64,000 nucleotides of DNA from an uncultured Gammaproteobacteria bacterium (GCA_964492425.1 CAZBKB010000003.1:6682-70681); one strand, 5' to 3'. Positions 3,989 through 52,084 are shown, counted from the first letter of the stretch. Translations and numbers: made by a program. The notes: generated by a model not told the origin, from the sequence alone.

Positions 3989-4336
3989 GTGGAAAATGTA
4001 AAAAATACTTCACTAGTTATATCTACAAAAAATGTGCTCACAATTAGGGCAAATATTTCTTTTAAAAAAATTCTCAAAAAAATTTACAAAAATAAAAAAG
4101 CGGATATCGTCATACTGGAAAAAGCAAAGTCCAACCAAATGGCGGCTATCCTACTATCTCGTCTCATGGGCAAGAAGTTCATTTGGGCACAATGTTTTTC
4201 CAATCCGCCAACTCCTAACTTTCCGGCCAAACTACTGATGAATCAAGCGGATACCATAATTGTCGCTTCCAAAAAATCGGCTGCCAAACTTCACTCGTTT
4301 GGTATCGACAAACCCAAGATTAGAATTAGGAAATAA
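3989..4336 (+). pseudogene. Possible truncated fragment of a GT4-like glycosyltransferase (N-terminal half only)
   Basis: Weak resemblance to the GT4 N-domain (ADIVILEK..AAILLSRLMGKKFIW ... ADTIIVASKKSAAKL). Only 115 aa, in an AT-rich region, with the overlapping ORF 4032..4238. Could also be noncoding. Confidence 0.2.
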
Positions 4337-4343
4337 TTTTAAA

Positions 4344-4736
4344 TTAACCCAAAACTACCCACGGCCTCAAATCCTTCTTCTTAATAACCGGCGCAATGAT
4401 AAACTTTGTAGCAGATTTGATAAACATCAGTGTCACAAAATTCACCTTCTCATGCTCATTCCAAAACCCGACCGGCACCCCAAGGTCATCACCGTAGGTC
4501 TTCTTAATAAGTTCTACCTCCTCAACTCTCGGATGGTCAAAATAGAAAACCCGATCAACTATAAATTGACCCACTATTTTTTCGCCGGGCACTTTTAAAA
4601 GCACCACATCCCCTGCCGCAACTTTACCGAAAGGATCAATCTTAATCTTAGAAAATCTTCCCTCTATCCTCTTACGGCCGCTAAACATCGCCTCAATTGC
4701 CTCACTTTTCAAAATAGCCAGATGCTTACCCATCAC
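4344..4736 (-). CDS. ASCH (PUA-like) domain protein
   Basis: Pattern HLAILKSEAIEAMFSGRKRIEGRF...GDVVLLK typical of ASCH domains. 130 aa. Confidence 0.45.
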   Translation of the reverse strand: MMGKHLAILKSEAIEAMFSGRKRIEGRFSKIKIDPFGKVAAGDVVLLKVPGEKIVGQFIVDRVFYFDHPRVEEVELIKKTYGDDLGVPVGFWNEHEKVNFVTLMFIKSATKFIIAPVIKKKDLRPWVVLG

Positions 4737-4784
4737 AGGGATTTTAATCCATTTGACAAAAAGATTCTATGCATCAGTAAAATG

Positions 4785-5669
4785 TTAGAACTCCAAACTT
4801 TTGAGGTAATCCCGCAACTCATCACCTATATCATCGCGCAAAAGACCATAATCTATAACAGTTTTCAAGTACCCAATTCTACTCCCGCAATCGTAATATT
4901 TGCCATTTTCAATCTCAATCGCATGAACCTTTTTACCATCCGAAATCATATTATTAACGCCATCTACATAGTAAAGTTCTTCTCCTTTGTCTATGGTGGT
5001 AGGCATCGCCCGCTCCAGTGCCTCAAATATATCCGGTGTAAATAAAAAACCGGATACTACAGCCAGATCACTCGGTGCCCTCTCCACTCCGGGTTTTTCA
5101 ATAAAAGTCTCAACATCAATAACTCCATTTGCAACCTCACGGCCCCCAACATATCCATACTTCTTTTTATCATCAGCATCCGGCCGCACAATACCAGACA
5201 AGATTGAAGTTCCATATTTTTCATAAGCTGTAATCATCTGCTTTGTCCTCGATGGTTTTGCCGCTACAAAATCATCTCCCCACAACATTACTACCGGCTC
5301 ATCCCCAACAATTTCGCGAGCCACCAGCAGCGCGTGACCGTTACCGAGTGCTTCTTTCTGTCTAACATACACAAAGTTGGCCAGTTCCGAAATTCTTCTT
5401 ACTTCCTCAAGCATTTGAGTTTTTCCGTCTTTTTCCAGTCTCGCCTCAAGCTCAAAATGCTTATCAAAATGATCCTCTATCGCCCGCTTGTGCCACCCAG
5501 TCACCAGAATTATCTGCTCTATACCTGCTTCTATCGCTTCCTCAACAACATATTGAATAATAGGCTTGTCAACCACAGGCAGCATCTCTTTGGGCATTGC
5601 CTTGGTTGCCGGCAAAAACCTCGTCCCAAACCCCGCCGCAGGAATTACTGCTTTCCTCACCTTTTTCAT
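4785..5669 (-). CDS. galU: UTP--glucose-1-phosphate uridylyltransferase
   Basis: N-terminal VIPAAGFGTRFLPATKAMPKEMLPVVDKPIIQY nucleotidyltransferase motif. Length 294 aa. Confidence 0.85.
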   Translation of the reverse strand: MKKVRKAVIPAAGFGTRFLPATKAMPKEMLPVVDKPIIQYVVEEAIEAGIEQIILVTGWHKRAIEDHFDKHFELEARLEKDGKTQMLEEVRRISELANFVYVRQKEALGNGHALLVAREIVGDEPVVMLWGDDFVAAKPSRTKQMITAYEKYGTSILSGIVRPDADDKKKYGYVGGREVANGVIDVETFIEKPGVERAPSDLAVVSGFLFTPDIFEALERAMPTTIDKGEELYYVDGVNNMISDGKKVHAIEIENGKYYDCGSRIGYLKTVIDYGLLRDDIGDELRDYLKSLEF

Positions 5670-6996: not shown

Positions 6997-7887
6997 GTGC
7001 CCAACATCAATAAAATCAAGCGCACGATAAAAAGGAATCGCTTAAAAATATTACTACTCGCCATTGCAGTCAGTACCATCACCTTCTTCTCATTAAATGA
7101 AATCTCACCAAACCAAATTGCCACAGAGCAAAATAAAACGCCATCTCCTAACCCAAACCAAATAACCACAATTACCGAACCTGATTCAAATATCCAAAAT
7201 CTTCTGCAAACAGAAATTCAACAACTTACAGGCACTTACAATATTGTCATAAAAGACCTAAAAACAAACCAGATTTACTCCATAGGACAAAACCAAAAAA
7301 TCCCCAGCGCCAGTATTTATAAACTTGCCGTTATGTACAAGGCTTTCGATGCGTTAGAAAAAGGAGAACTAAAAAAAAATCAGATTCTCTCAAACGGCCT
7401 AACTGTTGAAAAAGCACTGGAGCAAATGATAACTATATCCGATAACGAATCCGCCCTCATATTGGCAGAAAAACTAGGCTGGAAAAACATAAACTATTTT
7501 CTTCAAAGTGAAGGGGTTACAGGTTTTAACCTGATGATTAAAGATTACCCAGAAACAACTGCCAGGGCCACCGCAGATCTCCTTGAGAGAATTTACAGAA
7601 AAACCGCAGTCTCCGCCCAAGCATCGCGTGAAATGCTAGAACTACTGCTTGCTCAGCAAAAAAATGACCGAATCCCATCCCTTCTGCCACCAAATATCAA
7701 AGTAGCACATAAAACCGGAGAATTGGACAACTTCCGCCATGATGCCGGCATTGTCTTTGGCAAAAGAAGTGATTACATATTTGTATTTTTAACAGAAACA
7801 CCAGTCCCCGAAGATGCATACACAAACATTGCCAATCTCTCAAAAACCACGTTCGATGCACTGGAAAATCCCAATACCTTGAAATAA
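6997..7887 (+). CDS. Class A beta-lactamase-like serine hydrolase (membrane-anchored/secreted)
   Basis: N-terminal TM. SxxK (SASIYK), SDN (ISDNES) and KTG (HKTGEL) motifs in the canonical order and spacing. Confidence 0.65.
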   Translation: MPNINKIKRTIKRNRLKILLLAIAVSTITFFSLNEISPNQIATEQNKTPSPNPNQITTITEPDSNIQNLLQTEIQQLTGTYNIVIKDLKTNQIYSIGQNQKIPSASIYKLAVMYKAFDALEKGELKKNQILSNGLTVEKALEQMITISDNESALILAEKLGWKNINYFLQSEGVTGFNLMIKDYPETTARATADLLERIYRKTAVSAQASREMLELLLAQQKNDRIPSLLPPNIKVAHKTGELDNFRHDAGIVFGKRSDYIFVFLTETPVPEDAYTNIANLSKTTFDALENPNTLK

Positions 7888-8005: not shown

Positions 8006-8431
8006 ATGACAAAAAAAGTTAAAACCTTCATTAAGTTAACCCTCAAAGGCGGACAAGCAACTGCCGCCCCCCCAGTTGGAACGGCACTCTCACCTCAAGG
8101 TATACCTATAATGGACTTTGTCAAAGCTTTTAACGACAAAACAAAAGATCAAATGGGGACTCCCCTGCCTGTTGTAATTACAGTTTTTGAAGACAGGACT
8201 TTCGCTTTTATTGTAAAAAAACCTCCTGTTGCAGTCCTTATTAAAAAAGCTCTGAACATTGAAAAAGGTGCCCAAACTACAAGCAAGCAGACTGTTGGCA
8301 AACTATCAATCAACCAGGTAAAAAAAATCGCTGAAGAAAAAATGCCGGACTTAAACACCAAAAACATAGATGCTGCAACAAGAATAGTCCAAGGAACCGC
8401 AAGATCCATGGGGGTAGAAACCGAAATTTAA
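8006..8431 (+). CDS. rplK: 50S ribosomal protein L11
   Basis: MTKKVKTFIKLTLKGGQATAAPPVGTALSPQGI... signature. 141 aa. Confidence 0.9.
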   Translation: MTKKVKTFIKLTLKGGQATAAPPVGTALSPQGIPIMDFVKAFNDKTKDQMGTPLPVVITVFEDRTFAFIVKKPPVAVLIKKALNIEKGAQTTSKQTVGKLSINQVKKIAEEKMPDLNTKNIDAATRIVQGTARSMGVETEI

Positions 8432-8463
8432 AATTTCAAATTTAAAATTAAAAATTAATTAAT

Positions 8464-9435
8464 ATGGGCACCACTCGCATAAAAGTTATCGATCTTTCTT
8501 CAAGTCAGCAGGAAATTAAAACTGCAAGAAAGCACGCGGAAAAACTTTCTGGCGCAGTAAAAATTAAAAAGGATAAAACGAAAGCAGAAACAATACCTGC
8601 AAGCGAAATTCCAACCCAGGAAATACAAGCGACCTTGGCCCAAACACAAGAAATGCCGGTTGAACAAAAAGACTCAATCCCCGACACAAAAGTAAAGGAG
8701 GGAAAAAATCAACCAACCCCAATAGTTAAAAAAACAAAAGAGTCACCGCTCAAAAAACACGCACGCCACAAGGGCGCAAAATACCAAAAGGCAGCAGCTT
8801 TAATAGAGCCAAAAGACTATTCTCCAAAGGAAGCTTTCAAACTGCTACCCATGACATCTTTCACCAAATTCGACCCAACAGTGGAGGTACACCTGGGCCT
8901 TTCTGAAAAAAATATCAAAGTTACAGTCAATATGCCCCATTTTAAGGAAAAAAAGGACCATCACCCAAAATACTTAATTTTTGCCGACCAAAAAACTCTC
9001 CCCAAAGAAGCACAAGTAATCTGGGGTAATGAAAAAACAATTGCTGAGGTAGAAAAAGGATCCCTCAAAGCCGGTCGTGATTTTACAGAAGTTATTGCAT
9101 CTCCACAATACATGCCAAAACTTGCAAAAATCGCCAAAATCCTTGGACCAAAAGGTTTAATGCCAAACCCCAAAAACGAAACTGTTTCAGAAAATGTTGA
9201 AAAATTTTTCGATGGGTCTGCAAGTTTAGCCGGAACAACCGTAAAAACCGATCCAACAGCTCCAGTTATTCACACGAAAATCGGTAAACTTTCCCAGAAA
9301 ACAACCGAACTGGAAGCCAACTTCAAAGCACTCATAACTGCAATCGGCACCACAAAAATTAAAAAAGCAACGCTTACAACCTCGATGGGCCCACCAATCA
9401 GACTCGACCCTAATAAATTAACCGCTGCCCAATAG
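8464..9435 (+). CDS. rplA: 50S ribosomal protein L1 with an N-terminal K/E/T-rich extension of about 95 aa
   Basis: The L1 core begins near KHARHKGAKYQKAAALIEPKDYSPKEAFKLL...FDPTVEVHLGL. No Met is near the core start, so the extension appears to be translated. Confidence 0.85.
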   Translation: MGTTRIKVIDLSSSQQEIKTARKHAEKLSGAVKIKKDKTKAETIPASEIPTQEIQATLAQTQEMPVEQKDSIPDTKVKEGKNQPTPIVKKTKESPLKKHARHKGAKYQKAAALIEPKDYSPKEAFKLLPMTSFTKFDPTVEVHLGLSEKNIKVTVNMPHFKEKKDHHPKYLIFADQKTLPKEAQVIWGNEKTIAEVEKGSLKAGRDFTEVIASPQYMPKLAKIAKILGPKGLMPNPKNETVSENVEKFFDGSASLAGTTVKTDPTAPVIHTKIGKLSQKTTELEANFKALITAIGTTKIKKATLTTSMGPPIRLDPNKLTAAQ

Positions 9436-9537
9436 CCCAACGCCTACTTGTCCTACATCTACCGAAGTATCAATCTTGGAAATTTATAAAGCCACATAAA
9501 CAAGAAATTACCTAATTAATTACCCCAGCCACGACAC

Positions 9538-9567
9538 TTGACAACCCCCCCCCCACAATGATAGACT
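9538..9567 (+). promoter_or_regulatory. Sigma70-like promoter candidate for the inserted operon: TTGACA - 18 nt spacer containing C10 - TAGACT
   Basis: TTGACA at 9538-9543, TAGACT at 9562-9567, about 40 nt upstream of the 9607 start. The spacer contains a 10-nt homopolymeric C run in an otherwise low-GC genome. Confidence 0.4.
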
Positions 9568-9606
9568 ATGGGTCTTGAATTTCTGCCCAAATTTTTATAG
9601 GTAAAA

Positions 9607-12201
9607 ATGCCTAAAGAACAGCCACCGCTAAATTTAGAAGCCTTACAGGCAAAAGAGAGAAAACTGCAAGGCAGCCTGCTAAAGGCCGATCGCGTTGAGC
9701 TTACTTATACAGCCCGAATATACGCACCACATCTTGAGGAAGCAGTCAGAAAATCACCCGAAAAAGCAAGGTCTTGGGTCAACAAAGGCCAATTACTTCA
9801 GCCCCAGCACATTGCACTTGAAGCAAACATTCGGGTTGCCGATATTCGCGGAGCAATAAGGGACAATGCGATCCCGAAAATAGTGCAAAGCCTTGGCAAG
9901 ACCCAGGAGCAGATAAGAACACAAGACGAATCACCTGAACAAATAAGCATGTACGCCAGCCACCTTGAAGAATTAAAACGGGCAGCAACCTATGTCGAAG
10001 TCACCAAAGACAGAGTTATAGCAGGGCTTCTTACAAGCGGTGACCTAGACGAGGTCAAGGCTTACTACAGCAGCATAGAAAGCCTCCAGCAAACCGACCC
10101 CGAGCTTGCCCGCGCAAAAGAGGTCTACTTGGCAAAATTACAGAAGCAAGAAAGACAAGGCAGAACTACTTTTATCCCCCCAATTGAAAAACGAACTGGC
10201 AACGAACAAGAACCCCTAGCCTCTTTGAAAATCGACCGCAGCGTAAGTACAGTCCAAGTTGGTGGAAATGAGGTGGTTACACTGACCAAGGCTCAAATGG
10301 CCATCTTTGCAAGGCTGGCAAGGGAAACTAATGAAGCGGTGAAGCCGAAAACCCTGCGCGGTGTTCTAAAGAACGCGGGAGTCAGTCCTAAAACAAGCAT
10401 CACACAGGTCATTAATGAAATAAGAGCAAAAATTGAAGTAGATCCAAATGCACCTAAAATCTTAACCATGACTGGTTCAAGAAACGGTGCGAAATATGCC
10501 ATTAATGCCAATGTTGAATTTATCGGCAAATCAGAACGGTCAAGATTATCCAAAGAAGGATGGAAAATCTTCGAGATCGAGATGCCAGACGGTCAAGTTG
10601 TCAAAATTCAGGGTCAAAGATATGCCGATACCTTAAAACACTTGCTTCCGGCAACAATCGATAACCCAACAGGAACAGAAAGTCTATCAATGCAACTTTA
10701 TGGTAAAGCAGACAGAAGTAGTAGGAGCAGAGTTGCAAGCAAGGTAGCGAAGGTTAAAAGTGTACTCAAACCATACAATTGGACTGTAATTCAGCCTGTC
10801 CCACACGAAGATCTCAAATTTAAAAAGGGCGTAAAAAGCACTGAGCAACAAATCCCAAACGCCAAATATTATCTCGAAAAAATCACACCAGACGGTGTAC
10901 AAGCCAAACCGGCTACCTTTCCGCCAACCCCACCCGTTGAAACTCCGCCCGTACAAATTCCACCTGTAGAGTTTGGTCTTCGCCAAAGCCACCTAGACAC
11001 ACTCGACTACATCAGACAAAACCCAGACGGCCGGATGCAAACCGCAATCGCACTGCTTCGTACAACCAAGAAAGGCATTCCCCACACAAGGCCTCAAGCT
11101 GCTTTTGCAGCCAATCGCGCACTTTGGCATCTTTTCAACAGGAACCAAATGGGTATCGCAACAGAGGCAGAACAAGCTTTAAAAACCAACATCGAACAGG
11201 CACTTGGCTTAAAAGACGTTGAGGCAAAAGCCAAATTCAAAGAAATCGTAACCAACTTTTTCAGTTCAGATAGAAAGCAAGTTGAGGAAGTGCTTAAAAG
11301 CAAGGAAGTTAAAGAACCCATCAAAGAATTACCAACGGAAGCCGAAGTAGCACTTCTGGTAACTATCTACAAGCTAAGAAGAGACATTATTAAAAAATAC
11401 GAGCTGCCCCAACTCCCCCAAGATATAATCGAAGAGGCGTTAAAAGCATTCCCGGGAAGGCTAGATCTCGCAGCTGACGAGATAGTGAGCTTGCGCAATA
11501 GCGCCTACGACAAATTTGCAAGCATTGTCCAAAGCGACCAGTTAAACGAACTCTACGATCAAGCACCAGAAAGTACCAAGAAACTTATTATATATTTCAT
11601 GGAAATTGACCCTGAGACGCAACTTCAAGCACTCAAAGAAGCTTTACTTGCACCAACAGAAGCAGGATGGAAAGTGGTATCAGGCAGAGTTCAAGAATAC
11701 TGGAAAGGATTAGACGGCCATGAAATCAAAAGTGCCCAAACAGGGATAAATCCAATCCCAGATCCCGATGGGAAACCCGAAAATCAAAAACATACAGATT
11801 TGGCCGACTTAAGCACATCAAGTGTTTCCCCAGATAACCAAACAAACTCGATAACTGAAAAACCAAAGGTCTACAGCCTTGAGCGCCATGATCCCCAACT
11901 AAGGCAAAGAATACAGGGAATTCTGGACCAACTCGAATCAATAGCTGCCGACAGAAGTCGGACTCTCACGGTTCCGCAACTCGGTAATCTTGGCATCAAA
12001 GCAAAATTCGCCCAAAAAGTAGAGAGGGAGGGTTATATCCAAAGTAAAAAAGGACGAGACCATCATCCGATATTTACAGTCCATGAAGTAGCAATTCTTC
12101 TTTATTTAAAAGATTTTGCAAACGGTTTAAGCAAAAGAGACAAAAAACAAATAAGACATTTCGTCCAAGAAGAGTTGGCAAAACGAGATGAACAAAACTA
12201 A
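9607..12201 (+). CDS. Large (864 aa) protein with an internal OmpR/PhoB-type winged-helix DNA-binding domain. First gene of a three-gene insertion in the rplA-rplJ junction.
   Basis: Residues around 225-300 (VVTLTKAQMAIFARLARETNEAVKPKTLRGVLK...ITQVINEIRAKIEVDPNAPKILTMTGSRNGAKYAI) fit the trans_reg_C pattern. A Pro-rich linker PPTPPVETPPVQIPPVE follows. The rest is mostly helical with no other recognisable domain. Confidence 0.5.
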   Translation: MPKEQPPLNLEALQAKERKLQGSLLKADRVELTYTARIYAPHLEEAVRKSPEKARSWVNKGQLLQPQHIALEANIRVADIRGAIRDNAIPKIVQSLGKTQEQIRTQDESPEQISMYASHLEELKRAATYVEVTKDRVIAGLLTSGDLDEVKAYYSSIESLQQTDPELARAKEVYLAKLQKQERQGRTTFIPPIEKRTGNEQEPLASLKIDRSVSTVQVGGNEVVTLTKAQMAIFARLARETNEAVKPKTLRGVLKNAGVSPKTSITQVINEIRAKIEVDPNAPKILTMTGSRNGAKYAINANVEFIGKSERSRLSKEGWKIFEIEMPDGQVVKIQGQRYADTLKHLLPATIDNPTGTESLSMQLYGKADRSSRSRVASKVAKVKSVLKPYNWTVIQPVPHEDLKFKKGVKSTEQQIPNAKYYLEKITPDGVQAKPATFPPTPPVETPPVQIPPVEFGLRQSHLDTLDYIRQNPDGRMQTAIALLRTTKKGIPHTRPQAAFAANRALWHLFNRNQMGIATEAEQALKTNIEQALGLKDVEAKAKFKEIVTNFFSSDRKQVEEVLKSKEVKEPIKELPTEAEVALLVTIYKLRRDIIKKYELPQLPQDIIEEALKAFPGRLDLAADEIVSLRNSAYDKFASIVQSDQLNELYDQAPESTKKLIIYFMEIDPETQLQALKEALLAPTEAGWKVVSGRVQEYWKGLDGHEIKSAQTGINPIPDPDGKPENQKHTDLADLSTSSVSPDNQTNSITEKPKVYSLERHDPQLRQRIQGILDQLESIAADRSRTLTVPQLGNLGIKAKFAQKVEREGYIQSKKGRDHHPIFTVHEVAILLYLKDFANGLSKRDKKQIRHFVQEELAKRDEQN

Positions 12202-12225
12202 GATAATTAAAACAATTCAAAATAA

Positions 12226-13695
12226 ATGAGCGAGAGAAAACCACTTTTTATTCAGGAAGATATTGTAAATGCCCACAAGTACGTGGAGCGAGTAAAAGGA
12301 CGCGTTGATGCAGGCCAACTTACAGACGAACATCTGCAGAGTGCCCAAGCATATCTTGCGGGAGTAGAATTTTACGAGCCCCACCGACCACATCAGCTGT
12401 CAAGACAAACAATACGTTCAAAAGAAGAGGGAGAAAAGTTTCTACCAAAAATCTTAGTTAATCCAGAAACAAAAAGGGTCGAAATACCAAAATACGAAAT
12501 CGCCACAAAAATACCAGGAAAAGTCGAATGGGTACTATTTACTTACCTTGCACAAAATCCAAATAAAGACCTTCCTAAACAGATTTTAATCGCGGTTGCC
12601 CAACAAGCCGGTTCTAGTGCAAATGATATTAGAGATTTAATCTATCGCTTAAGAAAGAGTTTGGAACCGGATTCTAAAAACCCACTAATAATTACTACCA
12701 CCAAAATAGATAGCAAGTATTTCTATAGCTTAAACGCCAAAGTAGAATTTGTAGAAGATGAAAAAGAAAAGGAAAAGAAAAAAGTAACAAAACCAAAAGA
12801 AACACAGGAAGAAAGGCGAAGCTATACCATTAATTTATCAGAACGATCCCTAACCGATCAAGTGACGGGCACAGTGTTGGATATTATCGACGATCTGGAT
12901 TTTGTTATTTTAGCTAAAATTGCCCAGTCACAACAAAAAGGCTTTCTCGGAGAAACAATTGCCAGAATCTGTCGTGAAGCAGGCGATAAAAAAGGACCGT
13001 CACACGGAGTCATCAAAAGATTAAGGAGTATCTTTAATGACACTGAAGATACTCCAAAAATCATCACTCAAACTGGCAAAACGAGAGGCACAAGATACTT
13101 TCTAAATGCGGACGTTGAGCTCATAAGCGATGAAAAGACAATTCAAGAAGTTTCATCCACCCAACCGGAAACAGACGAGAAACAGCCTGTTGCAAGCCCA
13201 GACCAGCAAGCCGCTGGCTCACCAAGGATTGATTCAGCACAACGAACCTACGTACCATACAAAGCAACAGAAGATGAAAAGAGATCCAGTGCGGAAAACC
13301 GTACATTAAAAGCAGTTATCTTGGCAATTCACCCAGTAAACAACACAATAGACTTTGAAACGCTGCAGAAAGGGTTATTTTCCCCGGATTCGATTTATCA
13401 AACACCAACCGGTAAATGGATCACTATAAAACAGGCAGATGAAATAATTGAGGTTTTTGACAGAGCTGTTGCTAAAATTCGCGAAGAGGCAGCAATACCT
13501 GCACTTCGCCAAAACTGGACCGACGGGGACAAACAAATCTGGGAAATACTGAACGAATCGATAAACCGTGTGTCCTCCGGAAATGTTGCAGAGTATTCCA
13601 AAAAACTTAAAAGTAAAATTAGACAGTCTCAAAATAGGTACTACAAGCAACCCCGCCCACAAAACGGTAACACCGTTTTTAGGATTAAAATATGA
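12226..13695 (+). CDS. 489-aa protein with two OmpR/PhoB-type winged-helix domains. Second gene of the insertion.
   Basis: Two trans_reg_C-like segments: KVEWVLFTYLAQNPNKDLPKQILIAVA...IRDLIYRLRKSLEPDSKNPLIITTTKIDSKYFY and VILAKIAQSQQKGFLGETIARICREAG...GVIKRLRSIFNDTEDTPKIITQTGKTRGTRYFL. Starts 24 nt after the upstream gene. Its stop overlaps the next start (ATGA). Confidence 0.5.
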   Translation: MSERKPLFIQEDIVNAHKYVERVKGRVDAGQLTDEHLQSAQAYLAGVEFYEPHRPHQLSRQTIRSKEEGEKFLPKILVNPETKRVEIPKYEIATKIPGKVEWVLFTYLAQNPNKDLPKQILIAVAQQAGSSANDIRDLIYRLRKSLEPDSKNPLIITTTKIDSKYFYSLNAKVEFVEDEKEKEKKKVTKPKETQEERRSYTINLSERSLTDQVTGTVLDIIDDLDFVILAKIAQSQQKGFLGETIARICREAGDKKGPSHGVIKRLRSIFNDTEDTPKIITQTGKTRGTRYFLNADVELISDEKTIQEVSSTQPETDEKQPVASPDQQAAGSPRIDSAQRTYVPYKATEDEKRSSAENRTLKAVILAIHPVNNTIDFETLQKGLFSPDSIYQTPTGKWITIKQADEIIEVFDRAVAKIREEAAIPALRQNWTDGDKQIWEILNESINRVSSGNVAEYSKKLKSKIRQSQNRYYKQPRPQNGNTVFRIKI

Positions 13696-15230
13696 AGGAA
13701 CACGAGCCTGTAATTAAACTAATAATCGAAGAGAAGTTCTCGCCCGGAGCAATAGAAGCTCTAATGGCTAATTACCGGGATGCCCAACTGGCTTTTTTAG
13801 AGCTTATAGATAATGCCATTGACAACCGTATTGAGGGCAGTGCCAATCCCCTGCAGGTTCGTGTTCGGGTTTCCAGAGACGAGCTCTCTGTCCATAATCA
13901 GGGTGGTGAGGGCTTAGACCTTTCCGGTCTTACAGACTTTTTCAACTGGGGCCATTCCGAAAAATCCGGGCGCATCGGCATTTGGGGTGTAGGCGGTAAA
14001 GGGGCTGCCGGCTATCTCGGCCAAAGCTTGGAATTAGTTTGCTCTGCCAAAGCTTCTCAACAGGAATACAAAGTAGCGGATCCAAACTGGACAAGAAGAG
14101 TAGAAGGCGAAACAAAACGACTCACACCGGAAGTGAAAAAGGCGCATACCGAAGACGGCTATTTCAGGATCAGAATAACCAATCTGACCAAAGAAGTTAA
14201 TGCGGCTGCTCTTACAACGAAACTTGGAGATATCTACCGCCCCCTGCTTTTAACCAATAGGGTCAAGATTAAAGTTAATGGTAAAGACGTTGAACCTCTT
14301 CAAATTCGCTATGTTGAAAACGATCCAAAATTAAAGCCTGATAATTTGCTTGTTCAAACACGCTTTGGGGACCATTTTGAGTTAAAAGTTGGGATAATGG
14401 AAGAAGGCCAAATCCTTAAACCGGGTATCCGATGCTATTATCATGGGCGTTTAATAGAAGCGGAGCATTTTTTCGGTCACCCAACTCCAGCCCAAATGCC
14501 CGAAGCGGCAAGACTAATTGGTGAGGTAGACTTCGATTTCGTCCCGGTAACGCCGAATAAATCCAGCTTCATACACTCCTCACCTCAATGGATTCATGCT
14601 TCAAAAAGAATGCAGGAGGTACTAACTCCATGGAATGATAAATTGCAAGGTATAAAAATAGACCACAGGACACCAGTTGAAAACTACGAAAAAGAGTTAG
14701 CCAGAAAAGCAAAAAGGGTACTCGAGCACGTCCTTGCAACCACCGGGATAATCACCAAAACTATGCTGCCGGGAGAATCCGAAGGCCGCAGACCGCCAGG
14801 CCCAAGTGGTAAGCCAAAGGTTAAAACCGGCAGAACAAGTTCAAGCCGTGGTCCCCAGGAAGGTCAGACAGCTCCTGTTCTCGACGCAACCATCGGTGAA
14901 ATGAAACGCTGGGGTGCTTTGCACGAGATAGATGTTGCTCCAATGGGAAATAACGGTAGAAGAAGTGAAGCAATAGACGAAAAAGGTCGGAAAATTTTAA
15001 AAATTAACTCCGACCATCCTCTATATCAAGCCGAAAAAAAGGCTGGAGACGACGCCCTGGGTCTTTATCAGACGGAAACCGCCATTTTAAAAATTGCCGA
15101 GCTTGCAACACAAGGCAAATCAATTGAGGAATACATCGAGCTTGTTGACAATCTTTCTCGAGAATGTGGAGCTGTTTATAATGCTCGACTGGCCCAAAGA
15201 GATAGAAAAAACGGGAGAAGAAAAAAATAA
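13692..15230 (+). CDS. MORC/Hsp90-like GHKL (Bergerat-fold) ATPase. Third gene of the insertion.
   Basis: N-terminal GHKL motifs. N-box FLELIDNAIDN. G1-like VHNQGGEGLD. G2 box GIWGVGGKGAAGYLG (MORC-type GxYGxGxK). 4-nt overlap with the upstream gene. Confidence 0.6.
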   Translation: MKEHEPVIKLIIEEKFSPGAIEALMANYRDAQLAFLELIDNAIDNRIEGSANPLQVRVRVSRDELSVHNQGGEGLDLSGLTDFFNWGHSEKSGRIGIWGVGGKGAAGYLGQSLELVCSAKASQQEYKVADPNWTRRVEGETKRLTPEVKKAHTEDGYFRIRITNLTKEVNAAALTTKLGDIYRPLLLTNRVKIKVNGKDVEPLQIRYVENDPKLKPDNLLVQTRFGDHFELKVGIMEEGQILKPGIRCYYHGRLIEAEHFFGHPTPAQMPEAARLIGEVDFDFVPVTPNKSSFIHSSPQWIHASKRMQEVLTPWNDKLQGIKIDHRTPVENYEKELARKAKRVLEHVLATTGIITKTMLPGESEGRRPPGPSGKPKVKTGRTSSSRGPQEGQTAPVLDATIGEMKRWGALHEIDVAPMGNNGRRSEAIDEKGRKILKINSDHPLYQAEKKAGDDALGLYQTETAILKIAELATQGKSIEEYIELVDNLSRECGAVYNARLAQRDRKNGRRKK

Positions 15231-15299
15231 TAATTGCCAGTACATTGACAATCGACATTCATTATTGCTATATTTCCCCTAGTCCAAAGACCGTAGCTA

Positions 15300-15514
15300 T
15301 TCACTTCGTTCAGAATAAACTCGAGCAAAGTGAGGTTAAATTTCAAAGGTCACTCAGGGTCTACCCTGAGGAGTACACGATGAAGGGCTACGCAGGCGAA
15401 GCCCCGTTTGACGGGGCGAAGCGCTCTTAAGCTTTCCTGTCCTTCGTAGTTTTAACGAATAAGGAATGCGAGGGAGGAAAAAAAGGTCATAAAATTCAAA
15501 TTTTTTGACCATCC
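15300..15514 (+). promoter_or_regulatory. Structured 5' leader upstream of rplJ (candidate L10 autoregulatory leader)
   Basis: About 310 nt noncoding before rplJ, with stable hairpins CTCAGGGT-CT-ACCCTGAG (15353-15370) and GCCCCGT-TTG-ACGGGGC (15401-15417). The position matches the known rplJ leader in other bacteria. The L10-binding structure itself was not verified. Confidence 0.3.
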
Positions 15515-15539
15515 AACGTCTCTTTGGAGACGTTTTTTT
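15515..15539 (+). terminator. Intrinsic terminator/attenuator hairpin immediately 5' of the rplJ start codon
   Basis: AACGTCTC-TTTG-GAGACGTT followed by TTTTT, ending 1 nt before the rplJ ATG at 15540. Confidence 0.5.
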
Positions 15540-16091
15540 ATGAAAAAACAAACTAAATCTGCACGCGAAATAAAAGAAGATAAAGTTACCGCGTTTAGTG
15601 AAAAAATAGAAAAAGCAAAAACTGTAACTTTTGCCGACTACCGTGGTTTAACCGCAAATCAGCTGACAGAATTAAGAGCAAAAGTAAAAAACGTCGGTGG
15701 TGAATTTTTAGTCGAAAAAAATAATTTGATCAAGATCTCCTTAAAATCTACAAAACACCAAATTCCATCGGGCCAAGATCAGTTGCTAGTAGGCCCCACA
15801 GCCGCAATCGTTGCATATGACGATGAAATTGCACCAATAAGAGAAATCGCCGAAAGTAACAAAAACTTTGGTCTTCCAATTTTTAAGTTCGGCTTTTTTA
15901 ATGAAAACTTTTTAACTTCAGAAAATGTCGAAAAACTATCCAAAATACCAAGTAGGGACGCGCTTCTTCAAAAAATGGTTGCCTCTCTCAACTCACCGCT
16001 TTATGGAATAGTTTCGGTTCTTTCTGCAAATCTCAAAAACCTTGTTTACACGCTAAGCGCAATAAAAACAAGAAAGGAAACTAACACCTAA
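15540..16091 (+). CDS. rplJ: 50S ribosomal protein L10
   Basis: TFADYRGLTANQLTELRAKV motif. 183 aa. Upstream of rplL. Confidence 0.85.
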   Translation: MKKQTKSAREIKEDKVTAFSEKIEKAKTVTFADYRGLTANQLTELRAKVKNVGGEFLVEKNNLIKISLKSTKHQIPSGQDQLLVGPTAAIVAYDDEIAPIREIAESNKNFGLPIFKFGFFNENFLTSENVEKLSKIPSRDALLQKMVASLNSPLYGIVSVLSANLKNLVYTLSAIKTRKETNT

Positions 16092-16163
16092 TTACTGGCA
16101 ACTAAAGTTCTTGTGTCAGTCGCCAGACTTAATGCGTTAGACATTGAACGGAGGTGAATTTAT

Positions 16164-16745
16164 ATGGCAGACAACAATCAAAAAGCAGCCGGTGCTGCAG
16201 TCGATGCAGAGGAAGCCGCAAAAGAAGCACAAGATGCTGCACAAAAGGCTGAAAAGGCAGCAGATGAGGCCAGGGAGGTAAAAGAGGAGGTAAAAGAAGT
16301 CGCACAAAAGGTTGAAGAGAAAAAAGTGGAATCAAAAGAAGAAAAACCACAAGTAAAAGTATCTGCAAATTTAGAAAAGATTATCAAATCAATTGAGGGA
16401 CTTTCTATTTTGGAATTAGCAGATTTAGTAAAAGCTCTTGAGGAAAAGTTTGGAGTTTCGGCAGCAGTACCGACAGCAGCAATAGCAGCAGGCACACCGG
16501 CAGCAGGCACTGAGCAGGAAGGAAGTGAACAAACAACTTTCAATGTAATTTTAGCAGACGGCGGTGCAAACAAAATTTCAGTGATTAAAGCTGTTCGTGA
16601 GCTTGTCCCAACACTTGGCCTTGCAGAAGCAAAAACTTTAGTCGACACCGCTCCAAAAACAGTTCTTGAAGGAGTTAACAAGGAAAACGCAAATGAAGCA
16701 AAAACTAAGCTTGAAGCAGTTGGCGCGAAAGTCGAGCTAAAGTAA
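16164..16745 (+). CDS. rplL: 50S ribosomal protein L7/L12 with an A/E/K-rich N-terminal extension of about 68 aa
   Basis: GGAGGTGA RBS 8 nt upstream of the [66 protein letters not shown]...[12 protein letters not shown]. Confidence 0.9.
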
Positions 16746-25037: not shown

Positions 25038-28000
25038 CTACGGCGAGGCCTCTTGCCAGCCAACCGAAGAACTGGCCAGAAGCGTGTTCAAAAGGATTAT
25101 ATATTTGGGATCAAATTTGAAAACATCCGAAGGATATAGTGTATTTACAACTGGATCACTGTAATATCTCAGCAAATTAGCCTTCGTTCCTTCTTCGCCA
25201 TCAACATATAAACTGCCATTTACAGTTAATGCATTTGCAGCTGAGTTAAATATGTGATTTTCTCCTCCAAATTCGACATCCGTATCGGCAAATCCTTTTC
25301 TTGCAACATATATGCCATCAAGCCTATTTACCATTCCAGCAGTGTACAACCTGTTAACAGTAATATTGCCCCCAACCACAAAAACAGCCGCATTATCCCC
25401 GGAAGTTACGGTAACGTTGGACCTAACCCTTAAATTACCATCGACAAAAAACACCGCTTTGCCGCCTATTGTCACACCCCCGTCCACAACTTCGGCATCC
25501 CCACCGCAATAATACAGCCCGTTGTACGTGTTGTTACTAATAGTGCAAGCCGTCAACCCGCCGGCAATTGCTTTACTTCTGAACCTGGAAGCAAAGTAAT
25601 TGTATACCCCGCCGCCGGGAACCAGGGGCTTGATGTAATTTGTAAACCTAATCCCTCCTCCAGGATAACAAAAACCAACAGTTGGGAAGCCGCCAAACGA
25701 TGAATAACCCGAACCACCGTTGGTAACCGTTACCGAACTGATTGCACCCCCCGAAACCGTAGCTTCCGCCGTAGCACCGCTTCCGGAACCTCCGTATAAC
25801 AAAACTGTTGTGCCGTTTGAATAACCGGCGCCTCCACTCGTGACATTAACGGCCGTAACCGCACCAGAACTGATAGTGACCGTAGCAACCGCAGCAGTCA
25901 CAATGGCCTTGCCTTTAATTTTTGCACCTATGCTACCTCCTGCAATCACATAATCCGATTGGTACTTCCCAAAGCATGACCTATCCACATCCGCAGAAAT
26001 AATTCCCGCAGCCCCTACATCCCCACCCTGCGTTTCAAAAAATTTCGGGACACCCACGCTATATAGAAATCTGGGCCCACCGCTAAAACGCGAATTATTG
26101 TTTACCCAATTGTACTCGCTTAGACCCCCACCTACCATACAGGTTGGCATCACATACGCAACTCCTTCAAAAGTACCCGGTGTGGACCCAACAATAAATG
26201 TTACAGTCTTGGTAACTGACCCGCCCAATGGGATCGAAGAAGTAATAGGATAACCGCGTTGGTTACCCGCTCCGTCTAGCGGGGCAGGATAAAAATCAGC
26301 GGTCCCCGGGGGGCTTGGACAAGTTGGCACACCTGAGTTTTGGTAGTAAAAAAAGAGGTCGGTACCATTCGTAGTAAGTTGTGAACTTTTTATATTTTCA
26401 ACTTTGAAATCCACATCAACACTTTCTCCGGCGACAAACGCAGTTGTATGCTCCTGGGTCGCACTCTTCCTGGAACTTCCCGCAACCATGCTAACCTTCA
26501 AATCGTAACCTTCTTTACAAATAGGTATCCAAAAGGGCAAACCGCTATAGTTAAGCGTTGAGCTGGCAGTACCATCCGGGTACACATAACTGCTTTGACC
26601 GGCTGCCCCCATCGCTTTAACCCTCCAGTAATATCTGGTCTCTTCAATAGGCACACGCTCACTTCCCGCCGGAGTAACACCCGGGTTTGCGTTGGCCCAG
26701 CCAAGAGGGCTGGCCGCACTCCAGGTAAATGTGACAGTACCCCCGGACCCCGGGTTCGCCGGCAAAGATTTCACTCCCCACATGTTCGAAGGATTTGTGG
26801 TGGCAGGGCCGGTAAACGGCTCCCTGGAAACTTCCAGGGTATAACCGGTTTCACTGCTGGAATTATCCATAAACTTTAAATCTATCGATGGTAAATACTG
26901 AGAATTACAACCTACACGGTAAGCGGGCAAGACTGGTGGAGTCGCCTCCGCCAGCAAATTATTCGGCGCATTCGGCACAGGACCGCAAGTCACATCCACA
27001 ATTGTAATAGTGTTTGAATCAATGTCACTAGTGGATGTCAGAATTTTCCAAGTATGCGTGCCAGTGCCATCTAGGCTTGGATTATAATCGTTGCCTTGGG
27101 TAGAAACTATGAAATATGCATTACTTGTGTAAGAATAATCGGCGGAAAACTGATAGTCACTAAACCCATCATATCGAACGGTATAAACATAATTCCCGCC
27201 GTTCCAGTACAAAAATCGCTTTGATACTCCCTCGTCACAATAACTGAAGCCGTGAAGATCAGTCGGATCAGCGGGATCTTCTAAATGATAAGTACACTTG
27301 TAAATACCTTCAGACTCTTCAGCCACAGATGGATACCAAACATTGTTGGTCATCCGCGTATTTATTCGCCAATAGTAATGGGTTGTGGCAGTAAAGCTAA
27401 CGTTTGTTCCCTGGTAAATCCCGTCGGCACCGTTTTGGCCCTCAAGCACCATGCCAGTAGTGATATTCGTATCCGGCGGAAACGCAGGGTTAGTCGAATA
27501 TTCAAGCTTTTCCTCTTGGATCAAACTATTCGGAGTCGCTCTGCTCCATCGAAATTGCATATTATTTGGGACAGCATTATACCCTCCCCACGCGCAGAAC
27601 GTTAAATCAAGCGCTGACGCGGGCACATTTGCCGGGCATGAACTGGGCGTTGTAAAAGTATTGGTGGTCGAATAATTCACCTCGCCGGTTCCCATTTGAA
27701 AAGCCTGAACGCGCCACCAGTACTGTGTACCGGCGGCAAACGCGTCGACATTCATATACGTATTGGTAAGAGGACTTGGAGTAAAAATTACACCCGGCCA
27801 CGGCCCGGATGCACTTGTAGAATTTGTTTCCACACGATACTCAGAAATTCCGGGCGCAGCCGGATTCCAGGAAAATTCTACTCTAAACGCCAGCGGTGAA
27901 GGGCTAATGCAATTAATATTGGCACCAGGGCTTGAGGGCGGTGTAAAAGTTCCCGGACAGGTAAATTGCCCGTCGGCAAACACTGAATTATTGTCCGGCG

Positions 28001-28625
28001 AATTCGTAAATGCCTTGACCCGCAAGGTCCAGGTGCCATTGGCCAGTGAATTTAAAGCATTCGGCAAACTGGTATTTGGCAAACTATAACTATTGGTGCC
28101 CGAAACATAATTAACCGTTAGTGGACTGCCATCGCTGTCCGGAGTCCCGCTAAGCGACTTATAAACCTTAAAGTAAGCAATGTTGGCACCACCGTAGCCG
28201 GAGGTCACATTCCAGTATATTTGCCCGTTACTATTATTACAATTGGTTGAAGTTACTGTTATTGTGCTATTCGGCGTCGTACAGTGTACATTCTGCTCAG
28301 CAAATGTGTAGGCGCCTCCTGTGCCCCCGGTCGAGGACGAACCCAAATTACAGGCTGTAAACCAGGTGACAAATGGAAAATCCCCTGAAGTAATTGATTG
28401 CGGAGTCAGGTATTGCCTGGCACCAGCTGCAACTACTTGCGAAGAAATAGTACCTGCTGAGCCGCCGCTTTCGTTTTTAACACTAAAGCTTACGGTTACC
28501 GCAGTGCTCCCTGCCCTGTTGTCTAACCATCCCTCAATTGTCGCCGCAAAAGTATCGGCTGCAAAAACACTCTTTATGGCAAATATCAGAAAAAATACAG
28601 TCGCCAGTTTAAAAAAAGTTCTCAT
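25038..28625 (-). CDS. Giant secreted surface protein (1195 aa), paralog of 29443..32400
   Basis: Signal peptide [26 protein letters not shown]-rich Ig/FN3-like modules. A GGxGY repeat insertion. C-terminal roughly 300 aa homologous to the C-terminus of the next large ORF (..[61 protein letters not shown]). Confidence 0.6.
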
Positions 28626-28630
28626 ATTAC

Positions 28631-29464
28631 TTACTCCAAAAGTATTTGCTCGGGAATCTTAGCCCCCAAAGTCGCCAGCAGTTGCTTCAGCTTTAAATAA
28701 TTGCTTTTTATGCCTTCGTCTTGTGTCCTTTCGTATTCGGAATAAAGAGACGACAAAACGTTCATATAGTTGTTTGTCTGGGTTGTCTTGTCCCCCGTCA
28801 CCGCCGCCGCGTCAAAATTGCGCCCAATCGCACCGCGAACCTCATCGTCAACTGCCGTGTTGCCTTCCAGATCTTTTATAATTTCCTCTACCTCCGGCGG
28901 ATATTTAGCCTCGCCGCAAAGTCTATCAATACAGGGAAAATCGTAAAAACCCTTGTCTTTTTCGTATTGAGCCGGATAGTTCTTCTTCATATAATCCTTA
29001 TACTCATCCAGCTGGACCCGGTAATCATAAGAGCTTGTAGAAAGATAAAAACCGCGCAAAAACTCAAAATCGTCCGTCAATAATTTATATCTAATGTCCG
29101 CATCTTTCTCTTCGGAAGCCCTTTGGAAATTTTCCAAAAACTTTTCTTTTAAAAAGTCGCTTGGGAATTTAACATCGTTAACATTCAGAGGATATTCAAA
29201 AGTCTGCTCCTGCCCTTTCGTGTCTTTCGACCGGTTCCTGGCTGATAATGTTGAGTAAACAACCCAGAAACTCACCAAAACCACTACCAGAAGGCATAAC
29301 AGCAGTATCAGCCGGTAATGGTTCGACCCTGGCCAGATTCTAATTCTTTTTGGCTTGAGAACTACCCTGATTCCCCGATCCCAGCTGGGCTTGTCCAATA
29401 ACTCGGCTTCCTTGGCATCTGCAACAAAGGGCAGTTTAGGCACTACGGTTCTACCTCCCTCCAA
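28631..29464 (-). CDS. Hypothetical membrane-anchored protein, co-transcribed with the giant surface protein genes
   Basis: [21 protein letters not shown]. Overlaps the upstream gene by 22 nt and ends 5 nt before the downstream gene. Confidence 0.4.
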
Positions 29465-48466: not shown

Positions 48467-49492
48467 TTACAGGACATTTAAATCATGGATTCTATAGTAT
48501 TTTTCAAGAATGGATTGGGCTTTTTTCTCCCCCAAATCACTAAAAATTGCACTCTCACCGCCAAAACCAACCCACCAATTTACCCCAACAATACTTTCCT
48601 GTTCAGATATCAAAGAGAGTACCCGCTCAATCCATCTTGACTGTTCTTCTTCATCCATCTCTCCATGAATGTGAAGGATTGGAGCTCCGAGTTCTCCAAG
48701 TATGATCTGTGCTTTGGTCGAATTTTTAAGTTCAACGATTTGGTCCACAAAATCCTCCGGCTTTCTAGTATAATGGTCAACAACAATTAAATTGTCCATT
48801 TCAGAAAGTGTTTTTTTATCAAATACTAACTTTGCCACATCCAAATTCATGGAAGTGTAATTTGTATTTACCTTTTTGCCGGTCTTTGCAAATTCCTCAT
48901 CCATCACTCGCCTCTCGCTGGTCATAAAAGTGCGAAAACCATCAATATCAGTATTATATCTTGGGTCACCCGGTCCACCGTTCTCACATTCCGGGCATGC
49001 TGTAAAAATGTCTCCATCTTCAAATAAATCAGCATTACTGCCAATAAACTGTTTTAATTTCTCAATATGCCCATCACGATTTAAATTCTTTTCGTAACCG
49101 AACCAACCTTCCCAGGACGAAAAGTTTCCTCGAAACCATACTTTCAAATTATATTGTCTGGCAAAGTTCACCCATCGTTTTAAATAAGGGACAAATTCCT
49201 GATCGTATGGGGTATCCACTGCAACATGGGTAGCACCAGTTTTAGAAATCAGTCCCATCTGCCTGTTTATTTCTAAATCAAAAGATTGTTCTTTGAACTT
49301 TATCCTCGCCTTGTCCCTGGAATCCTTCATCGTATCTATCGATTTAACCCGCCAAACACGCCCCGAGACAGGAAATTCCAATTGCTCACTATCTTTTTTA
49401 CCGGTAGCGTTAAAAAGAGATGAAAAAATTATTAATGCCCCAAAGACCAATATTGCAGAAATAACAATCTTCTTAATATTTACTAGATTCAC
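48467..49492 (-). CDS. Membrane-anchored putative TIM-barrel glycoside hydrolase-like protein
   Basis: N-terminal TM. Composition and length resemble GH5/GH113-like barrels, but no firm motif. Confidence 0.35.
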   Translation of the reverse strand: MNLVNIKKIVISAILVFGALIIFSSLFNATGKKDSEQLEFPVSGRVWRVKSIDTMKDSRDKARIKFKEQSFDLEINRQMGLISKTGATHVAVDTPYDQEFVPYLKRWVNFARQYNLKVWFRGNFSSWEGWFGYEKNLNRDGHIEKLKQFIGSNADLFEDGDIFTACPECENGGPGDPRYNTDIDGFRTFMTSERRVMDEEFAKTGKKVNTNYTSMNLDVAKLVFDKKTLSEMDNLIVVDHYTRKPEDFVDQIVELKNSTKAQIILGELGAPILHIHGEMDEEEQSRWIERVLSLISEQESIVGVNWWVGFGGESAIFSDLGEKKAQSILEKYYRIHDLNVL

Positions 49493-51192: not shown

Positions 51193-52084
51193 AAATGGTT
51201 AAATTTTGAGAGTTAGTCCTGAGGTTAAAGGTTACATACCGAGAAAAATTTACCGCAAATTCCAAAACCGCAAGTATAGTAAATATTGGCGACTTAAAAA
51301 AACTCAAAAAAAGCTGCTTTAAAAGTAAAATCCTGGGAAACCTGTATTCAATGTCAATATATTGCTTGTCGAAATATTGAGACAAGGCTGATTTTCCAAG
51401 ATAAAATTTGTCGCTATGTGCTTGCCGATCCTCAGTCGTACTAATATTCTTTGCTAACACCCTGGCGTCGTTTGCCTTCACCATCAGGAATCCAAGTTCT
51501 TTTAGCCTTAAATAGCAGTAGCAATCTTCAGGTACATCAGATGGAAAAAATAATTTTCTAGAAAAGCTGCGTGCAATCGCTCTCATTGTATGGCCGCTGC
51601 AATTGTATAAATTATCACCTCCGCGAAATTTTTCGAACGCGTTTTGCTTTATTTCATTTTCAGTCCGAAAAACTTTCTCAAAGAACGTTCTTGGAGTTTC
51701 CATAATATCCCTTCCAACCACCATACCGATTCTAGAGTTGTCACAGTCATGATACGGTTTAACCAGTTTTGCAAGCGTCCAACAGTCATATGGTACAGTA
51801 TCAGCTTCCACTATAACCAAAATATCCCCCTTAAATTTTGCAATCATTTGATTCTGTCTTGCCTGCTGACTCATTCTTTGTCCGTCATCATAAAACTTTA
51901 CCCTTCTATCCTTTATACTTTTAACTATTTGTGCAGTTAAATCAGTGCTCCCGTCAGAAATTATCAAAACCTCACTAAGTTTGAAACCAACCTCCTTTTG
52001 CGAAAGTATCAGCCGAACGAGCTTTCCAATATTTTTTTCTTCGTTGTAGGCAGGAATTCCGACCGTTACTTGTAAATTTTTCAT
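51179..52084 (-). CDS. Family 2 glycosyltransferase (polyprenyl-phosphate sugar transferase-like)
   Basis: VGIPAYNEEKNI...ISDGSTD motifs. Confidence 0.75.
   Translation of the reverse strand: MKNLQVTVGIPAYNEEKNIGKLVRLILSQKEVGFKLSEVLIISDGSTDLTAQIVKSIKDRRVKFYDDGQRMSQQARQNQMIAKFKGDILVIVEADTVPYDCWTLAKLVKPYHDCDNSRIGMVVGRDIMETPRTFFEKVFRTENEIKQNAFEKFRGGDNLYNCSGHTMRAIARSFSRKLFFPSDVPEDCYCYLRLKELGFLMVKANDARVLAKNISTTEDRQAHSDKFYLGKSALSQYFDKQYIDIEYRFPRILLLKQLFLSFFKSPIFTILAVLEFAVNFSRYVTFNLRTNSQNLTIFERE

Follow-up and report, generated by a model that had tools for sequence, protein, structure and literature searches.

The DNA analysed here (the window) is a 64,000-nucleotide stretch of a groundwater metagenome contig labelled as an uncultured Gammaproteobacteria bacterium (GCA_964492425.1, CAZBKB010000003.1:6682-70681). 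Positions 9607–15230 on its plus strand, which also carries the promoter-like site ahead of X, form one three-gene cassette, X-Y-MORC. Gene X (9607–12201) encodes a modular, putatively DNA-binding partner protein of 864 amino acids, composed of N-terminal helices, two winged helix-turn-helix (wHTH) modules (wH1 and wH2), a middle domain (MID) and a C-terminal domain (CTD-X). Gene Y (12226–13695) encodes a 489-residue partner with an N-terminal helix, two wHTH modules (wH1a and wH1b) and a different C-terminal domain (CTD-Y), and the third gene (13692–15230) encodes a 512-residue MORC-family GHKL+S5 ATPase, the conserved core of the cassette. In the open reading frame (ORF) map, the MORC start codon overlaps the Y stop codon by 4 nt. 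A first-pass annotation had reported the ORFs of 864 and 489 residues, both of which were recovered at these positions, and had described a two-protein picture; the translationally coupled MORC gene directly downstream was missed, and its presence changes the purpose of the scaffold. The cassette is flanked by rplK-rplA (8006–9435) and rplJ-rplL (15540–16745), genes that normally form one uninterrupted cluster. Its nearest relatives are found in Candidatus Curtissbacteria and Levybacteria (Microgenomates, within the Candidate Phyla Radiation (CPR)); taxon labels are unreliable for several metagenome bins, some of which are titled 'Gammaproteobacteria'.

Profile searches placed OmpR/PhoB-type effector domains in both partner proteins. 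The Pfam family Trans_reg_C (PF00486) matched residues 101–159 of Y with E = 6.9e-7 and 29.7 bits, above the gathering score of 26.2, and residues 222–289 of X with E = 1.6e-4 and 22.1 bits (24.8 bits as an isolated segment), just under that score. A second segment of Y (residues ~200–300) had no direct Pfam match and aligned with the wH1 segment of X by BLASTP (E = 2e-8). When hidden Markov models (HMMs) of the modules were rebuilt without any window or ortholog sequence, the leave-out wH1 model scored 93.6 bits at Y residues 73–177, 64.5 bits at Y residues 200–300 and 83.1 bits at X residues 203–308, and the leave-out wH2 model scored 75.9 bits at X residues 321–400; the best of 400 shuffled controls reached at most 6.2 bits with the wH1 model and at most 8.2 bits with any of the five models. 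The domains delimited in this way are X wH1 (residues 203–308; 10213–10530), detected by Trans_reg_C, leave-out HMM and AlphaFold; X wH2 (residues 321–428; 10567–10890), a divergent OmpR-type winged helix detected by leave-out HMM, hhalign and AlphaFold; Y wH1a (residues 73–177; 12442–12756), detected by Trans_reg_C and leave-out HMM; and Y wH1b (residues 200–300; 12823–13125), detected by the BLASTP alignment to X wH1 and by leave-out HMM.

The module profiles retrieved the same family among solved structures. The wH1 profile, built from 32 sequences of which three are from this window, matched OmpR/PhoB effector domains, with DrrB first (1p2f, E = 1.1e-9), followed by ArlR, WalR, KdpE, RstA, ToxR, CadC and OmpR, and the wH2 profile matched ArlR (the best, E = 5.8e-5), SaeR, KdpE, AfsR and EmbR, the last two through their wHTH alone. 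Aligned with each other by hhalign, wH1 and wH2 proved homologous (probability 96.6%, E = 5.8e-10). In individual Pfam scans, Trans_reg_C was matched by 9 of the 32 wH1 members and 5 of the 31 wH2 members, and no other family recurred. Among the PHROGs phage families, only an unnamed family was matched, by the wHTH. A single-sequence phmmer search of Y against the PDB was uninformative and was set aside.

Structure prediction agreed with these assignments for X. Its AlphaFold model, computed with 31 homologs, has a mean predicted local distance difference test (pLDDT) score of 81.4, with domains at ~90, and shows the OmpR effector topology (a β-sheet, three helices and a β-hairpin wing) at residues 205–306 and 321–425; in wH1 the elements are strands at 205–225, helices at 228–239, 247–256 and 265–276 and the hairpin at 286–306. 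Foldseek comparison of the model returned the C-terminal domain of OmpR (template modelling (TM) score 0.77, root-mean-square deviation 2.6 Å), CovR (TM 0.76) and ToxR (TM 0.71), and the top PDB matches were almost all OmpR/PhoB proteins. The pair in X is thus confirmed by sequence and predicted fold, and the pair in Y is confirmed as OmpR/PhoB-type from its sequence. The first-pass annotation had counted three such domains, and all three are real; the total does not stand, because X wH2 at residues 321–428 brings it to four, two in each protein.

That annotation was also right that neither protein has a receiver domain (no Response_reg match in Pfam or NCBIfam at E ≤ 10) and that neither resembles SARP/AfsR proteins (no BTAD, TPR or NB-ARC match in the same two collections). 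NCBIfam matches to MtrA and VirG were confined to the effector-domain part, and no membrane segment was predicted, the maximum Kyte–Doolittle score over 19 residues being 0.95 for X and 1.33 for Y. Lacking a receiver, a BTAD and a membrane segment, X and Y are therefore not response regulators, SARPs or ToxR/CadC-like proteins. A lack of significant Trans_reg_C matches or a different predicted fold would have spoken against the first-pass annotation, and neither was seen. Its view of the architecture as unusual survives on these grounds and on the rarity of the profile, and it overlooked the fourth wHTH domain, a MerR-like helix-turn-helix (HTH) and the MORC gene.

What all four modules have in common with PF00486 effector domains is detectable sequence homology and, as modelled for X, the fold. 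By analogy, they probably read DNA as OmpR and PhoB do, with a recognition helix in the major groove, a wing contact and direct repeats as sites, and sequence-specific DNA binding by X and Y would be expected from this homology. The setting of the modules is different. OmpR response regulators have a receiver with a phosphorylation switch and a single effector copy that dimerises, whereas the X/Y family has neither receiver nor switch and carries 2–5 tandem copies per chain, embedded in scaffolds of 500–1000 residues whose terminal domains are unrelated and whose genes are joined to an ATPase gene. Precedents for receiver-less OmpR-type wHTH domains are ToxR/CadC and SARP/AfsR/EmbR, and ToxR, CadC, AfsR and EmbR are among the profile matches. 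ToxR and CadC, however, have a transmembrane helix and a periplasmic sensor, and SARP/AfsR proteins have a BTAD and a single, N-terminal wHTH, in contrast to the internal, repeated wHTH domains of X and Y, which come without a transmembrane segment and without BTAD, TPR or NB-ARC.

Outside the winged helices, the partner proteins contain further regions. The N-terminal region of X (residues 1–200; 9607–10206) is modelled as long helices (10–35, 66–106, 108–138 and 144–186), and BLASTP aligned residues 121–303 of X with residues 11–173 of Y (E = 9e-9), so that residues 121–200 of X are homologous to the N terminus of Y; this region may serve in X–Y pairing or oligomerisation. MID (X residues 459–706; 10981–11724) is an all-helical domain of ~250 residues (leave-out HMM 172 bits, pLDDT ~80–95) whose profile had no significant match in the PDB and whose members gave nothing significant in individual Pfam scans. 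CTD-X (X residues 751–863; 11857–12195; leave-out HMM 105.6 bits) is tentatively assigned as a MerR/excisionase-type HTH: its profile weakly matched GlnR, of the MerR family (E = 0.003), 2 of 31 members had weak MerR_1 matches, and its modelled fold resembled the GlnR–DNA complex (TM 0.65) and a phage excisionase HTH (TM 0.62). CTD-Y (Y residues 342–480; 13249–13665; leave-out HMM 116.5 bits) is a conserved domain of ~140 residues, with no PDB match by profile and no significant Pfam match among its members, and is a candidate ATPase-docking domain.

The 512-residue protein encoded by the third gene is a MORC by published sequence criteria. A profile of 63 homologs matched MORC3 (E = 5.6e-12), MORC4 and, weakly, SMCHD1, and Foldseek of its AlphaFold model (pLDDT 84.8) returned MORC3, MORC4, MORC2, TRAP1/Hsp90 and SMCHD1 at ~1e-14, with MORC2–DNA structures among the fold matches. 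GHKL motif I (ExxxNxxD) is present as E37 (E in 49/63 sequences, D in 14/63) with N41 and D44 invariant; the glycines G72 and G74 of the G1 box (DxGxG) are invariant, as are G96, G99, G101, G102, K103 and G107 of the G2 box (GxxGxG). The S5 motif defined as specific to MORCs, GhXhhpXXRhl (Iyer, Abhiman & Aravind 2008, PMC2292703), appears as G245-IRCYYHG-R253-LI with G245, G252 and R253 invariant, and the likewise invariant N289-K290 aligns with 'HNK' of MORC3. Two other identities were rejected. The fold scores of Hsp90/TRAP1 were similar to those of MORCs, but the profile had no Hsp90 match at E ≤ 1 and the MORC S5 motif is present; and a MutL-like endonuclease in the C-terminal domain was dismissed on inspection of the alignment, which has no conserved metal-binding His/Glu motif among its invariant columns.

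The partner proteins are rare. A word-indexed search of 5.8 billion sequences found only one ortholog each of X (P0004, 55% identical, in the same three-gene order) and Y (P0002, 39% identical), and an exhaustive HMMER search with the X profile against 1.84 billion cluster representatives retrieved 155 proteins at E ≤ 1e-3; the cluster members looked up for this profile are all unnamed. Iterative local HMMs divided these relatives into recurring modules, and loci (numbered L001 onwards) were collected from the contexts of ATPase homologs and from a scan of one genome per species and searched with the module HMMs. An ortholog cassette in GCA_900206355.1 has the identical X-Y-MORC order in an unrelated neighbourhood. 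Where the ATPase is at least 36% identical and upstream sequence is available, a CTD-Y protein is encoded immediately upstream of the MORC gene in every locus (19/19), and an X-type protein, with MID and/or CTD-X, is present in ~10–12 of the 19. Gene order is otherwise variable, being Y-MORC-X in L009, L020 and L091 and Y-MORC-Y-X in L008. In L008, this set is bracketed by paralogous genes with similar C-terminal halves (4296–5051, 251 residues; 12526–13446, 306 residues), which may either contribute extra components or mark where a duplicated or mobile unit ends. The Y-type gene of L006 (5586–8004) is split into a 698-residue ORF with three wHTH modules and a 117-residue ORF with the rest of CTD-Y, as could result from a frameshift, from decay into a pseudogene or from an error in the sequence; the related gene in L092 is unbroken and encodes 554 residues.

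This close clade is carried by ~7 of 185,579 species representatives, and the cassette is so far known only from a few ultra-small (CPR) bacteria. A distant ATPase clade of 28–34% identity (~70 loci, L017–L090) is widespread in genomes of three groups, Chloroflexota and Dormibacterota, which supply most of its loci, and Limnocylindria; it lacks the X/Y partner modules and also includes a second paralog in a Curtissbacteria genome. In the closely related loci L067, L070, L076 and L080, the gene just ahead of the distant-clade ATPase encodes an ordinary response regulator of the OmpR family. Such OmpR-type matches beside distant Chloroflexota ATPases were considered as array proteins and ruled out, because they are ordinary response regulators with receivers.

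X and Y might instead be unusual one-component transcription factors for nearby genes, the ATPase gene included, their co-location reflecting co-regulation and not a physical machine. HTH domains of the OmpR and MerR types are typical of transcription factors, and X is preceded by a promoter-like site accompanied by a short direct repeat. Yet the adjacency of CTD-Y and MORC genes persists down to 36% ATPase identity despite changes of gene order, and, with the start/stop overlap, argues for a stoichiometric complex. The proteins, with up to five wHTH modules, are also far larger and more modular than autoregulators, and distant MORC relatives outside the clade entirely lack X/Y proteins. We therefore consider this explanation very unlikely.

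Comparison of cassettes revealed that the DNA-reading parts change while the engine and the putative docking parts are kept. Partner proteins have 0–5 wHTH modules, variously ordered, with CTD-X or CTD-Y at the C terminus. Between the window and the orthologous cassette of L001, the ATPase is 85% identical (80–88% by domain), and the N-terminal helices, MID, CTD-Y and both wHTH modules of X are 57–67% identical (CTD-Y itself 57%), whereas identity falls to 38% in Y wH1b, 23% in CTD-X and 17% in Y wH1a, so that the wHTH modules adjacent to CTD-Y are at 17–38%. Y wH1a is 39% identical to modules of other proteins, against 17% to its positional ortholog, and its positional counterpart is likewise closest to modules of other proteins. 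This pattern indicates replacement and not drift alone; judged from these alignments, Y wH1a was swapped outright between orthologous cassettes. Exchange and fast divergence of the DNA-reading modules beside a constant ATPase imply that target specificity varies between strains.

No nuclease, helicase or methylase domain was found in the three cassette proteins, and no helicase, endonuclease or methylase gene neighbours the cassette in the window or in 10 related loci with annotated neighbourhoods. PADLOC-DB v2 gave no family for any of the three proteins at E ≤ 10. These results argue against a classical restriction-like system. A broader form of this idea is that the arrays sense invader DNA and that the MORC protein triggers an effector, either unrecognised within MID or CTD-Y or encoded elsewhere, with DNA damage or growth arrest and not simple silencing as the outcome, in a restriction-like or abortive defence against phages or plasmids. 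Prokaryotic MORCs have indeed been predicted to act in restriction-modification-type systems (PMC2292703), hypervariable, swapped sensor-like modules on a conserved ATPase core are typical of conflict systems, the distribution is patchy, and some loci have toxin-antitoxin or integrase genes as neighbours (HicAB in L001, PIN in L008, NTase-HEPN in L010 and an integrase in L006/L092). But toxin-antitoxin neighbours are common anywhere in these genomes, no known toxin domain accompanies the missing enzymes in any cassette protein, PADLOC is silent, and many loci lie among housekeeping genes with synteny across divergent genomes. An HD-domain protein downstream of the ATPase in L004 was examined as a conserved effector and rejected, being deoxynucleoside triphosphatase-like, beside nrdR and ribonucleotide reductase genes and without a same-position homolog in L092. 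We regard defence of this kind as unlikely.

The same neighbourhoods raise a different alternative, a lineage-specific system of chromosome organisation or segregation in which the arrays mark loading sites, as ParB marks parS, and a MORC clamp organises the nucleoid in bacteria with small genomes. Core-gene settings fit this idea: the cassette lies between rplA and rplJ in the window, between msrB and rseP-frr-tsf in L009/L093 and near nrdR in L004/L010, and synteny is kept across ATPase identities of 38–66%. There is also no effector enzyme, and GHKL clamps are known DNA organisers, with MORC and SMCHD1 proteins among the fold matches. However, an essential device would be much more widespread within CPR than this cassette is, many loci do without X, and a housekeeping loader should keep its DNA-reading domains, which here are swapped between close relatives; rarity and module swapping together argue against an essential housekeeping role. 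On balance, an organising function appears distinctly unlikely.

We propose that X and Y are modular DNA-binding adaptors through which a MORC clamp is guided to, or loaded on, specific DNA, with silencing or restraint as the outcome, a reading in which our confidence is evenly divided. OmpR/PhoB regulators bind direct repeats as head-to-tail dimers after phosphorylation-driven dimerisation of their receivers. Covalently joined wHTH domains would instead read a long composite DNA site constitutively and independently of phosphorylation, since joining effector domains in one chain makes the phosphorylation switch unneeded and the recognised site longer. X and Y would pair via their homologous N-terminal helices, as the sharing of these helices suggests. 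CTD-Y would dock the MORC dimer, a step suggested by the invariable adjacency and translational coupling of its gene to the MORC gene. ATP makes MORC and other GHKL(+S5) ATPases dimerise, and the dimers clamp or compact DNA; like its eukaryotic counterparts, the MORC dimer might then use ATP to close on the recognised site or nearby DNA, or to compact it. Because no nuclease was found, DNA cleavage is not implied. The most likely biological role, in our view, would be to silence or restrain particular foreign or selfish DNA in the CPR hosts, this DNA being chosen by its sequence. A bolder version, which we put forward only tentatively and hold doubtful, is a programmable operon-encoded system in which exchangeable receiver-less wHTH arrays provide long addresses, load the MORC clamp, and silence or compact DNA without cutting.

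Several observations weigh against the proposal. DNA binding, the X–Y–MORC complex and ATPase activity are all putative. The OmpR fold has been seen in the model for the two wHTH domains of X, those of Y being recognised by sequence. X is missing from several loci and may therefore be accessory. In the ATPase, the adenine-contacting Asp of the G1 box is not conserved: by alignment with the MORC3 HMM it corresponds to the variable position 70 (Q/E/R/I/H/V), beside N69, which is conserved in 60/63 sequences, so that nucleotide handling may be atypical. MID and CTD-Y, both without recognisable relatives, could still conceal an enzymatic or effector activity. A mobile-defence-island picture is weakened in particular: the cassette is often found among housekeeping genes, in syntenic positions in L004/L010, L009/L093 and L006/L092, and tblastn with the ATPase as query had no match among 50,697 phage records and 72,556 plasmid records. 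Housekeeping neighbours, synteny and absence from these collections argue against a highly mobile defence island.

The window offers few signals for the expression or mobility of the cassette. A promoter-like site upstream of X (9538–9567; TTGACA, 18-nt spacing, TAGACT, with a TG element) matched the consensus at 10 of 12 positions in a consensus scan; the region contains no more promoter-like sites than expected from shuffled sequence, and the assignment of this one as the cassette promoter is suggestive only. Just upstream of the -35-like hexamer lie two copies of a 7-bp direct repeat, AATTACC, at 12-bp spacing (9506–9524), a possible operator for direct-repeat-binding wHTH domains, although so short and AT-rich a repeat could be a chance occurrence. 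No convincing flanking direct or inverted repeats that could mark mobile-element boundaries were found around 9300–15700, and no tRNA or other Rfam family adjoins the cassette. Downstream of the ATPase gene, a strong promoter-like site (15245–15274; 11 of 12 matches, with TG) is followed by a leader of ~250 nt that is GC-richer and structured-looking, and a hairpin with a T-run (15515–15534) ends 5 nt ahead of the rplJ start codon; no Rfam family, the L10 leader included, reached its gathering score in 15245–15539.

The gene rplA adjoins the cassette both in the window, where the cassette follows it, and in L020, where the two are convergent; the ATPases are ~36% identical, and in L020 rplA does not lie within an rplKAJL operon. 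An apparently conserved insertion between rplA and rplJ is probably a coincidence. In the window, the ribosomal protein L1 (8464–9435; 323 residues) has an N-terminal extension of ~95 residues rich in lysine and glutamate, and its counterpart in L020 (9919–10776) has ~105 residues ahead of the Pfam L1 domain. A beta-lactamase-like gene (6997–7887; PF13354 in the ENA contig annotation) sits between nusG and rplK within the otherwise conserved secE-nusG-rplKAJL region. Elsewhere, two very large minus-strand ORFs (25038–28625, 1195 residues; 29443–32400, 985 residues), with no Pfam match at E ≤ 1e-5, occupy the most GC-rich part of the window (0.47–0.48 against 0.415 overall), and a 1570-residue fusion of glycosyltransferase family 2 and family 4/1 domains (55282–59994, minus strand) heads a run of overlapping minus-strand genes at 49489–59994.

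In prokaryotes, MORC ATPases have been recognised by sequence since 2008 (PMC2292703), and the ATPase described here has in common with them the GHKL+S5 architecture, the MORC S5 motif, the conserved S5 lysine and a sporadic distribution. Their described operons (PMC2292703) provide superfamily II helicases, endonucleases and DNA methylases as partners, whereas here the sole conserved partners are multi-wHTH proteins. In the literature searched, we found no description of MORC–wHTH systems or of MORCs in CPR bacteria, and no experimental study of a prokaryotic MORC. The nearest solved structures and sequences to this ATPase belong to eukaryotic MORCs, which include MORC2/3/4, plant MORCs and the Toxoplasma MORC that works with AP2 factors. 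Eukaryotic MORCs are ATP-driven DNA clamps brought to their targets by separate specificity factors. This cassette differs from them in having no CW zinc finger or chromatin reader and in the G1-box Asp noted above, and targeting here would be by direct DNA reading through operon-encoded adaptors. We regard the cassette as a prokaryotic MORC system of a new type, in which the OmpR domain is put to a new use.

Together, these results suggest that a DNA-clamping ATPase is directed to selected DNA sequences in a manner not described before. As a minimal MORC system of three proteins and no nuclease, with targeting subunits legible from sequence, the cassette makes clamp loading and its specificity directly testable in vitro, and it bears on how the guidance of eukaryotic MORCs arose. 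Covalent tandem arrays here stand in place of phosphorylation-driven dimerisation, and their modules are exchanged in the manner of specificity cassettes; should DNA recognition by the arrays prove modular, they could be of interest as designable DNA readers. Should the programmable reading be true, the cassette would be a bacterial counterpart, and possibly a forerunner, of adaptor-guided MORC silencing in eukaryotes, and would give prokaryotic MORCs their first functional context beyond restriction-modification-like operons. It also adds a lineage-specific DNA-handling system to the CPR bacteria.

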